Assembly (NCBI GenBank): GCA_000004695.1
Contig: CM000155.2
Span: 384,001-448,000 of the forward strand
Origin: Dictyostelium discoideum
Taxonomy: Eukaryota
Reading direction: 5' to 3'
Length of the DNA: 64,000 bases
Shown here in pieces: positions 43,952 through 45,587 of the stretch (position 1 is its first letter; each line of letters begins with the position of its first letter). Made by a program: the position numbers and the translations under genes. Under the pieces are notes generated by a model. The model had not been told where the DNA came from, did no database searches, and saw nothing but the letters and a program-made list of their open reading frames with translations.

Positions 43952-45587
43952 ATGGAAGAAATTGATGATAGTAATTCATATGGAAATAAAATATTTGGAA
44001 ATAATAATAATATTATAGCAATAAAATATGAAGATTATATTAAAATCAATGATCCAGATTCAGATTCAGATGAACCATATTTGGAATCAGATGATCCAAA
44101 TTCACCTAAAGAACCATTATTACATCATTCATTAAAAAAAGAAAGAGGTCATTCATTAGGTGAAAAAACAATAGGACAATGGGCATCATTTATATTTATT
44201 GTTAATCAAATTTATGGTCCTGGTGTATTATCAATACCAAAAGTATTTCAACAATGTAAATATATAAATAAATAAAAATATAAAAATAAAACTTTAAAAA
44301 AAACAAAAATAAATATTAATTGTTTTTTTTTTTAATTTTTTTTTTTTTTGTTTTTATTTTTTAGCAGGATGGATATTAACAACATTTTCATTAACATTTT
44401 TTTTAATAATGTCATGTTTAGCATCAACTTTATTATGTGAATCATTGTCGATGATACCAGGTAATAGATTTTTTGATAAACATATTGAATATTCAGTTGC
44501 AATTAAATATTTCTTTGGTAAAAAAGTTTATTTTATTTTTCAAATTTTAAATAATTTATGTATTCAAGCATATAATATAGCATCGATTGCAATTTGTGCA
44601 CAATCGTTAGACCAATTCTTTTTATTTGCATTCAAGAAAACATTTGCGTTGACCCTATCACCACATTTTCAATTTATAAGTACATCAAATGTAGATGCAT
44701 TATATAATTCAAATATAATTTGTATATCGTTGGGATATTTAATAATATGTGCAATTTCCATACCTACCGGGTTTATGAATTTAAATGATAATGTGAAGAT
44801 AGTCCAATCGTTGTCTTTCCTATTCTTGTTTTTACTAATTGGTGAATTCATAGTACAATATTTTTTAAATGGTATTGAGTTTGAGAGAGTGCCCGCCTTT
44901 GGCCACAGCTACTACCAATTGGTATCGATATTTGTTTTTTCATGGGCATATCCTATGTTTATCCCATCATGGGTTAATGAAAAGAAAGACGGGGTGTCGG
45001 TGAACAGGGCTGTGTGGTCGGCCGGGGTGTTCTCCTGGTTCGGGTACTTGTTCATCGGGCTGTTGGGGGCCTGTGCTTATGGGTCGTTGGGCAGTGACAA
45101 TATACTAAATCTTATGGGGAGCATTAAGTACCCATTGGTGACGAGAATCGCTAGTTACCTATTCAGTTTAACCGTTATCGCACCTGGTATCCCTATTTGT
45201 TTCATCACTGTGCGTTATAATCTATACGTGGGCTATATTTGTGGGAAGAAAGCATCCTACTTTTTCGGTGTTATAGCTCCTTGGTTCTTTGCTTTTGTAT
45301 TCTGTAATCAAAAAATCTTTGCTGACCTCTTAACTTGGTCTTCATTAATTTTAAATACAATTATAAATTTTTTAGTACCTTTTGCACTCTATCTAAAAGC
45401 TTCCTCAAAAATTAAATCTTTAAATCCTGATCATCAATCAATAATTAATCCATATTCAAAATATTTACCTTCAAAATATCATAGATTATTAACTTGGTTA
45501 ATATTATCATCAGTTATTATAATATCAATAATTCAAATAGTTTATGATTCTTATAAATCTTCAAAAGGATTTAATCCATTAGATTAA
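43952..45587 (+). CDS. Transmembrane amino-acid transporter of the Aa_trans (AAAP/SLC32/36/38-like) family. Two exons, about 508 aa, about 11 transmembrane helices.
   Basis: Exon 1 is 43952..44255 (MEEIDDSNSYGNKIF…GEKTIGQWASFIFIVNQIYGPGVLSIPKVFQQ, phase 1, donor GTAAAT). Exon 2 is 44365..45587 (SGWILTTFSLTFFLIMSCLASTLLCESLSMIPGN…). The phases close. N-(I/L)-x-G-x-G-(V/I)-L-(S/A)-(L/I)-P is the hallmark motif of the Aa_trans family. The body is hydrophobic. Confidence 0.65.

Follow-up and report, generated by a model that had tools for sequence, protein, structure and literature searches.

Lineage-specific, stepwise gain of G and C at silent sites in a transporter gene of Dictyostelium discoideum

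In mammals and birds, hotspots of GC-biased gene conversion (gBGC) leave "GC-biased clustered substitutions", for example in mouse Fxy after its move into the pseudoautosomal region and in many human accelerated regions. A patch of comparable appearance is present in Dictyostelium discoideum AX4, in a stretch of 64,000 nucleotides (contig CM000155.2, positions 384,001 to 448,000; hereafter the window), inside DDB_G0291632, a gene of the Aa_trans family of membrane proteins. The Aa_trans patch is a lineage-specific, stepwise burst of A/T-to-G/C substitutions (W→S, with W denoting A or T and S denoting G or C). Like the mammalian and avian clusters, it is of sub-kilobase to kilobase size, consists overwhelmingly of A/T→G/C changes at both synonymous and non-synonymous sites, is specific to a lineage and has left the protein largely as it was. 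It differs from them in that the Dictyostelium genome has only 23% G+C, A↔T changes are raised too, the patches are known from substitutions alone, and the mapped crossovers lie in A/T-rich non-coding sequence.

Other described systems invite comparison as well. Recombination-associated mutagenesis joined to gBGC is known from hotspots, and in yeast, according to Kiktev et al. 2018, G+C-rich tracts reportedly raise both mutation and recombination. The patch likewise joins a raised local mutation rate with a bias towards G/C, and a feedback is possible once a tract has become G+C-rich. Unlike the yeast effect, however, a gene for a cationic amino-acid (CAT) permease in the same window is comparably G+C-rich at codon positions 1-2 and shows no spike in G+C content at third codon positions (GC3). 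The polymerase-eta phase of immunoglobulin somatic hypermutation changes A:T pairs and spares G:C pairs, which resembles the pattern seen here (W→S 24x, W↔W 7x, S→W 0.9x). Immunoglobulin hypermutation is nevertheless somatic, targeted by AID and strongly strand-biased, whereas a second patch in the window, in a Vps8-like gene, is without strand bias, and we know of no hypermutation of that kind in the germ line of an amoeba. Clusters of rare codons are thought to pace translation, and the Aa_trans patch is similar in being a run of genome-rare codons in the gene of a membrane protein. It is unlike such clusters in that it is not conserved, mixes rare with common-type codons, extends to non-synonymous sites, and has counterparts in a WD40-type domain and in a dehydrogenase.

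Within Dictyostelium, Ma et al. 2015 (PMC4683709) attributed a raised G+C content around lost introns to biased gene conversion; the effect in that work, which compares two species separated by about 400 million years, is a modest shift, statistical in nature, within 100-bp flanks. The present locus shares with that case the genus, the proposed force and the loss of an ancestral intron, here between the codons for Q181 and S182, but its main peak lies 400 bp from the lost-intron site. No description of sub-kilobase, lineage-specific GC3 spikes in Dictyostelium was found in the papers searched. What is new relative to the known clusters of GC gain is that the organism lacks Spo11, that gBGC has been reported absent from its genome, that A↔T changes are accelerated as well, and that sister lineages differ in activity. 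The start of recombination in the Spo11-less dictyostelids has been termed mysterious (PMC6369745), and D. discoideum has served as a "no gBGC" model genome in work that tells selection on codon usage apart from neutral forces (PMC8321536).

Composition and substitution pattern of the Aa_trans patch

The host gene, DDB_G0291632 (XP_635253.1), encodes a protein of 508 amino acids, and its spliced translation is identical to the database protein; the Pfam family PF01490 (Aa_trans) is recorded on its orthologues. The gene and the features within it are as follows.

43952..44255, plus strand: exon 1 of DDB_G0291632, codons 1-101 and the first base of codon 102; GC3 0-0.10
44256..44364, plus strand: intron of DDB_G0291632, GT..AG, 5.5% G+C; model confirmed by the exact protein match
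44365..45587, plus strand: exon 2 of DDB_G0291632, stop codon included; holds the entire G+C patch
44571..45350, no strand: full zone of excess A/T-to-G/C substitution (core and shoulders), codons 171-430
44961..45140, no strand: hotspot core, codons 301-360, about 180 bp; GC3 20/20 at 45012-45071
44931..44987, no strand: AX4 "dip", codons 291-309; ancestral A/T in AX4, G/C in the isolates FIR and FIW
45042..45091, plus strand: G-quadruplex motif (regular expression; runs of three or more G, loops of 1-12); the single canonical one in the 64-kb window

The window has a G+C content of 22.9%, and its 120-bp segments have a median of 0.233 and a 99.9th percentile of 0.558; the highest value, 0.60, is reached inside the Aa_trans patch. 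Delimited as a G+C-rich segment, the patch spans 44883-45188 (49% G+C) and has a G-skewed coding strand (89 G versus 60 C). The original prediction, made from the letters of the window, had placed a G+C-rich segment of atypical codons at 44880-45280, with about 60% G+C at 45000-45110 and less than 30% in the flanking exonic sequence. The segment is real and the flanks indeed measure 19.7-25.0%, but the central stretch is slightly less G+C-rich than claimed (55.9%), and the feature extends beyond the predicted interval (46.1% G+C), with its core at 44961-45140 resting on shoulders from about 44571 to 45350.

In 20-codon windows, GC3 is 0-0.10 at both ends of the gene, climbs from about 44600, peaks at 0.95 in codons 311-330 and at 20/20 at 45012-45071, and is again at most 0.15 by about 45350, so that the profile is bell-shaped and its edges are not sharp. 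For comparison, 20-codon windows across all coding-like open reading frames (ORFs) of the window have a median GC3 of 0.15 and a 99th percentile of 0.55. When third-position classes were shuffled within the gene, the best run reached 16/20 and none of 100,000 permutations equalled the observed 20/20. Chance had been argued against from the presence of two patches, and it is contradicted by these permutations as well as by those for the Vps8-like gene (0/20,000).

The G+C content at codon positions 1+2 ranges merely from 0.20 to 0.50 along the gene, and the G+C excess of the patch sits at synonymous sites. GGG occurs seven times, GTG four times and TCG three times among the codons of the core, while the gene ends contain no GGG, no GTG and a single TCG among 29 serine codons. 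The core encodes transmembrane segments. Ten of the window's 129 runs of three or more G fall within 44960-45140 (181 bp), and the G-quadruplex motif of the core is more likely a consequence than a cause of the G+C gain, namely a by-product of GGG glycine codons, because a regular-expression scan of the Vps8 patch found no such motif.

The direction of change was determined at third positions by defining the ancestral class from four outgroups and counting changes on the lineage to AX4. W→S changes have occurred at 31 of 49 sites in the core, at 44/166 in the shoulders and at only 4/223 at the gene ends; the corresponding S→W counts are 0/6, 4/16 and 2/10. Over the whole patch (codons 171-430) this amounts to 75/215 W→S and 4/22 S→W changes, and Fisher tests on W→S returned p = 7e-24 (core versus gene ends) and 4e-14. 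Codon positions 1+2 of the patch show 10 W→S changes versus 1 S→W change, for example K316R (AAG→AGG). The W→S bias is thus independent of functional class and affects synonymous and non-synonymous sites alike. Expressed as Poisson-corrected rates of the broad patch relative to the flank, W→S is raised 23.7x and A↔T 6.9x, with S→W at 0.9x.

Orthologous DNA was taken from ten genomes besides AX4, with one genome per lineage: the divergent "D. discoideum" isolates FIR and FIW, the cryptic "cf. discoideum" lineages FIY and FIZ, and the species D. dimigraforme, D. firmibasis, D. citrinum, D. purpureum, P. violaceum and T. lacteum. The assemblies appear to come from bioRxiv 10.1101/2025.08.01.668227, where the divergence between AX4 and D. 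firmibasis is put at about the human-mouse distance (bioRxiv 10.1101/2025.08.01.668227). The GC3 of codons 311-330 is graded within the species complex, from 0.95 in AX4 and FIR and 0.90 in FIW to 0.65 in FIY and 0.40 in FIZ, and is 0.20 in each of four outgroups, D. dimigraforme, D. firmibasis, D. citrinum and D. purpureum. The patch is absent at the corresponding codons of these four species and of T. lacteum; a G+C-rich segment conserved across species, which the original prediction had named as a contrary case, is therefore not what is seen. The encoded protein is nearly unchanged, and its amino-acid identity to the sister species is similar in the patch and in the flanks.

The G/C states are nested, those of FIZ being mostly common to FIY and AX4, and the earliest gains, as seen in FIZ, are located in codons 311-353. 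Codons 312, 313, 321 and 336 carry different G/C bases in different lineages, and the gains there are therefore independent and parallel. Codons 291-310 have a GC3 of 0.30 in AX4, 0.75 in FIR and 0.70 in FIW, and at most sites of the dip (codons 291-309) FIY, FIZ and the outgroups match AX4; the dip inside the AX4 patch exists because AX4 retains ancestral A/T where FIR and FIW gained G/C. An apparent sign of decay on the AX4 branch (4 S→W) is likewise probably due to retained ancestral A/T rather than to reversion. Third positions of codons for identical amino acids differ from AX4 at 43/87 sites in the patch versus 18/236 in the flank for FIZ, and at 44/82 versus 32/234 for D. dimigraforme. 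Between the AX2/AX4 and the FIR/FIW types, 15/87 third positions differ in codons 271-360 (about 270 bp).

The ancestral intron at Q181|S182 (about 44604 in the window) is common to D. purpureum and T. lacteum (L002 ~2387-2459; L004 ~3478-3548) and missing from D. discoideum, D. citrinum, D. firmibasis, D. dimigraforme and P. violaceum. Three of the species without it (D. citrinum, D. firmibasis and D. dimigraforme) have no patch either, so the loss of the intron predates the G+C gain. Intron loss by conversion with complementary DNA was for the same reason rejected as a direct cause, the intron being missing also in species without the patch. A minor bump in the GC3 of AX4 (0.40 at codons 181-200) abuts the lost-intron site. 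The D. purpureum orthologue contains a further intron near codon 286.

In the public annotation of FIR, the intact Aa_trans frame is given as two genes of 285 and 157 amino acids (L005 4001-5032 and 5143-5616). The break falls within the G+C-rich patch (L005 4863-5316), the frame has neither a stop codon nor a frameshift, and gene prediction may have gone astray over the atypical composition.

Two further loci and the branch to AX4

Spikes of the same kind are found in two other genes of the window.

14352..15161, no strand: second hotspot, in the Vps8-like RING/WD40 gene XP_635240.1, codons 191-460; core 14742-15041, peak 14874-14933
47572..47661, minus strand: third, younger hotspot (core of a spike at 47000-47725), in a short-chain dehydrogenase (SDR) gene, ORF 47047-47901, codons 81-110

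The model of the Vps8-like gene (13697-13928 joined to 14014-19037) matches XP_635240.1 exactly. Its G+C-rich segment (14753-15036) lies 30 kb from the Aa_trans patch and peaks at a GC3 of 17/20, a value reached in none of 20,000 permutations. Orthologous DNA was reached through the neighbouring CAT permease gene with 10-kb flanks; a protein search with the Vps8 segment gave no dictyostelid orthologue. With identical amino acids, the peak GC3 is 0.75 in AX4, 0.70 in FIY and 0.20 in D. dimigraforme, and the ratio of W→S to S→W changes is 67:15 in the patch versus 81:67 in the rest of the gene (p = 5e-5), which bears out the earlier claim that both patches represent one phenomenon. The adjacent CAT permease gene served as a negative control: its GC3 profile is alike in all three genomes, and its stretch of comparable G+C content at codon positions 1-2 carries no GC3 spike, so that local G+C content alone is not sufficient.

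The suggestion that the two patches might derive from a common donor or repeat did not hold up, for a direct comparison revealed no shared sequence. The best similarity between the Aa_trans and Vps8 patches is 12 bp (E = 0.03), and each core matches only itself in the window. Among the three cores there is no shared 8-mer, and the single shared 7-mer is compatible with chance.

The SDR spike is located 2.3 kb downstream of the Aa_trans patch. Its GC3 is 0.30-0.35 in AX4, 0.65-0.70 in FIR, 0.70 in FIW, 0.15-0.25 in FIY and 0.05-0.20 in the outgroups, orthology being taken from the best tblastn match only and a tandem SDR paralogue being present at 48572-49411. Changes to G/C that are specific to FIR and FIW number 12 in 47500-47720, versus 0 specific to AX4, and 25 in 47009-47725.

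A four-way nucleotide alignment of AX4, FIR, FIW and FIY over about 7 kb (41000-48100) provides a baseline for the two sister branches. Outside the spikes, 86 changes are specific to AX4 versus 68 to FIR+FIW, and the ratio of W→S to S→W is 34:21 and 38:13, so that the number of W→S changes (34 versus 38) is similar on both. Within the Aa_trans patch (44571-45350), by contrast, 1 branch-specific W→S change on the AX4 side stands against 20 on the FIR+FIW side, and within the SDR spike 0 against 12. For the two spikes combined, 1 versus 32 against the background of 34 versus 38 gives p = 1.7e-6; the asymmetry is significant only against this 7-kb baseline and not on the codon data, where flank counts are small. 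The Aa_trans and SDR hotspots are thus silent on the terminal branch to AX4 and active in FIR/FIW.

Candidate causes of the G+C gain

The observations to be explained are a directional, stepwise W→S change and a raised local rate, in one pattern at three loci and in dependence on the lineage. The best reading, to which we assign a probability of roughly 55%, is a narrow and long-persisting hotspot, either of break repair or of non-crossover gene conversion, in which G/C-biased mismatch correction is combined with mutagenic repair. The activity of such a hotspot would have begun in the ancestor of the D. discoideum species complex, once D. dimigraforme had split off, and the hotspot would have a core of 100-300 bp and shoulders of about 0.7-0.8 kb. 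Local DNA breaks would be repaired recurrently, or non-crossover gene conversion would take place, at one fixed site; mismatches in the heteroduplex would be corrected towards G/C, as in gBGC, by a repair that is mildly mutagenic in its own right. Most amino-acid changes in the transporter would be purged by purifying selection, and for this reason the drive would be visible almost only at silent sites. The outcome would be a run of codons hardly used otherwise in D. discoideum (GGG, GTG, TCG and CTG).

Recombinational repair with a transmission bias is a cause suggested by the patterns of substitution. A bell-shaped profile is expected of conversion tracts around a fixed initiation point. A two-parameter model (mutation multiplier m, fixation bias B), applied to the W→S and S→W rate ratios, yields B ~3.3 and m ~7, and the A↔T rate independently gives m ~7; as the S→W counts are merely 4 and 2, both estimates are rough and serve as a consistency check only. 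Furthermore, the mutational equilibrium G+C content (GCeq) of D. discoideum is about 12.2% (PMC8321536), so that a GC3 of 0.95 requires a strong and sustained force. From the literature, a conversion bias in Dictyostelium is supported by the raised G+C around lost introns (PMC4683709) and by a correlation of -0.94 between chromosome length and G+C content (PMC5635611).

Several observations weigh against this reading. Changes between A and T at sites with 4-fold degeneracy occur more often in the Aa_trans patch than in the flank (9/29 versus 2/38, p = 0.007), and the core of the Vps8 patch shows a similar difference (5/14 versus 40/266, p = 0.056). As gBGC is neutral to A↔T changes, it is insufficient alone and a mutational component is needed. 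At 4-fold sites of the Aa_trans core (44999-45083), T→G changes outnumber T→C changes by 7 to 3, and this excess, together with the skew of G over C in the patch, hints at a strand-asymmetric mutational input. All three spikes are wholly exonic, and the few crossovers mapped in D. discoideum lie mostly in non-coding, A/T-rich sequence (PMC6369745). In addition, five coarse-scale tests, including one on the frequency spectrum of single-nucleotide polymorphisms in introns, detected no gBGC in D. discoideum (PMC8321536). These tests addressed scales of at least 5 kb or introns, in AX4-type strains where the hotspots seem silent, which may explain why a signal was missed.

Part of this evidence would equally be accounted for by a local mutational hotspot without fixation bias, in which breaks or damage are repaired by error-prone synthesis that miscopies A:T pairs, and we regard this as the main rival, credible but clearly less probable. 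The process would resemble the polymerase-eta phase of antibody hypermutation, or the bypass of abasic sites with insertion of C, and would yield A/T→G/C and A↔T changes with few G/C→A/T changes, after which selection on the protein would filter the non-synonymous ones. The rate pattern fits it equally well, with A↔T at 4-fold sites raised about 7-fold and S→W at 0.9x. Polymerase errors targeted to A:T pairs are expected at about 70:30 (W→S versus W↔W), and the 4-fold sites of the Aa_trans patch, with 12 changes to G and 6 to C, come near this at 18:9. The preponderance of T→G (7) over T→C (3) and the G-skewed coding strand of the Aa_trans patch also agree with it, and it needs no heterozygosity or sex and is compatible with the negative gBGC tests and with crossovers in A/T-rich DNA. 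However, the silence of two hotspots on the AX4 branch and their activity in FIR/FIW would require a trans-acting change to be added, and the Vps8 patch shows no strand asymmetry at its 4-fold sites (12 changes to G, 13 to C) and more transitions than transversions. The lack of S→W changes in the Aa_trans core (0/6) also bears on it, but the number is too small to weigh.

Selection for an embedded G+C-rich element, such as rare codons that slow translation in aid of co-translational folding or membrane insertion, a DNA segment that positions nucleosomes or binds protein, a G-quadruplex or an RNA structure, appears unlikely. The core is filled with codons nearly absent elsewhere in the gene (GGG x7, GTG x4, TCG x3), encodes transmembrane segments and holds the window's sole G-quadruplex motif, as such selection might produce. 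The protein segment is conserved, yet four sister species lack the codon cluster and the complex shows it in graded form, strains differ in which G/C base they carry, rare G-ending codons are mixed with C-ending ones, and non-synonymous sites and A↔T changes are affected too. RNA folding of the patch was no better than that of shuffled sequence on either strand (z = -0.53 and -0.56), and searches of the whole window for Rfam families at gathering scores and for tRNA gave no match. Far less probable still is a mosaic origin, in which a segment would have been brought in, by gene conversion or horizontal transfer, from a source richer in G+C, be it a different species, a paralogue, a bacterium or a virus. 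Only the abrupt-looking contrast of composition in a single genome speaks for it, whereas the G/C states have built up gradually and in nested order across five lineages, in part by parallel gains, the edges are bell-shaped, protein divergence is alike inside and outside the patch, and all recovered dictyostelid orthologues are less G+C-rich at the patch codons. A donor search in collections of plasmid, phage and E. coli genomes gave no match. Of the two mechanisms offered by the original prediction, biased conversion therefore stands as the leading explanation and a mosaic does not, the gains being stepwise and nested and no donor having been found in these collections. An artefact or chance effect (assembly chimera, sequencing error or random codon fluctuation) is scarcely credible: AX4 and three long-read assemblies made independently (FIR, FIW and FIY) all contain the patch, which disposes of the assembly error raised at the outset, no permutation out of 100,000 reproduces it, the frame is uninterrupted and the protein agrees with its orthologues along its whole length.

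Other candidates were tried and rejected. Amino-acid composition does not account for the patch, as G+C at positions 1+2 is little changed and in the orthologues codons ending in A or T specify the same residues. Codon optimisation is contradicted by the dominance of G-ending 4-fold codons in the patch, no G-ending codon being the most preferred one at amino acids with 4-fold degeneracy (PMC8321536). For an antisense gene there are only reverse ORFs that are either short or expected from composition, and a functional rare-codon cluster is at odds with a position that is not conserved among orthologues sharing the fold.

Returning to the favoured hotspot of biased repair or conversion, the joint silencing of two sites would be predicted by a population-level process (frequency of outcrossing, effective population size) or by a trans-acting factor, and not by purely cis-acting fragility. 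A more specific and rather doubtful extension is that the GC3 spikes are fossil, partly active footprints of sites at which Spo11-independent meiotic recombination or gene conversion is initiated, set by a lineage-variable trans-acting factor or by mating behaviour. If true, it would account for the joint silencing on the AX4 branch of two hotspots 2.3 kb apart that stayed active in FIR/FIW, it would reconcile the extreme patches with the published lack of gBGC in AX4-type strains, and the spikes would supply concrete coordinates for the start of Spo11-less recombination. Each patch offers many heterozygous marker sites in strains able to mate with AX2, and AX2 forms macrocysts with strains of the CR116C/OT3A type (bioRxiv 10.1101/2025.08.01.668227).

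Irrespective of its cause, the rise of silent sites, inside one species complex, from a G+C content of about 20% to one of 95-100% means that a strong local force towards G/C exists or existed, and that tests at the 5-kb scale miss such a force when it acts below 1 kb. Patches of this kind inflate the local synonymous divergence (dS), mimic accelerated evolution, create rare G-quadruplex motifs and, in one assembly, split a gene annotation.

Other observations in the window

Weaker GC3 maxima of 0.60 occur at 35135-35194 (minus-strand ORF 34718-36445), 30149-30208 (plus-strand ORF 29867-30631) and 321-380 (minus-strand ORF 3-1013); judged from AX4 alone, they may be lineage-specific hotspots or expression-linked codon bias. 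The G-rich stretches at 30917-31129 and 31551-31677 look driven by amino-acid content.

In the remainder of the Vps8-like gene (15162-19037), the W→S to S→W ratio on recent branches is 23:3 on the AX4 side and 18:3 in FIY. As in the 7-kb background, W→S thus exceeds S→W outside the hotspots too. By our own estimate, errors of parsimony at sites of fast G/C→A/T change account for no more than a part of this, and a diffuse, clade-wide G+C gain is possible.

The esterase/lipase gene XP_635239.1 (12540-13265, plus strand) is absent from the syntenic position in D. dimigraforme, where the alignment jumps from 13636 to 11905. Its closest homologues in FIR and FIW have locus tags that fall on the other side of the Aa_trans gene, and in FIY an Abhydrolase gene stands beside Vps8; XP_635239.1 may be a lineage-specific gain or a relocation.

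Just 3' of the Aa_trans stop codon, at 45630-45770, lies a near-perfect (AAT)n microsatellite of about 45 units with 1.5-8% G+C, which is ordinary for this genome.

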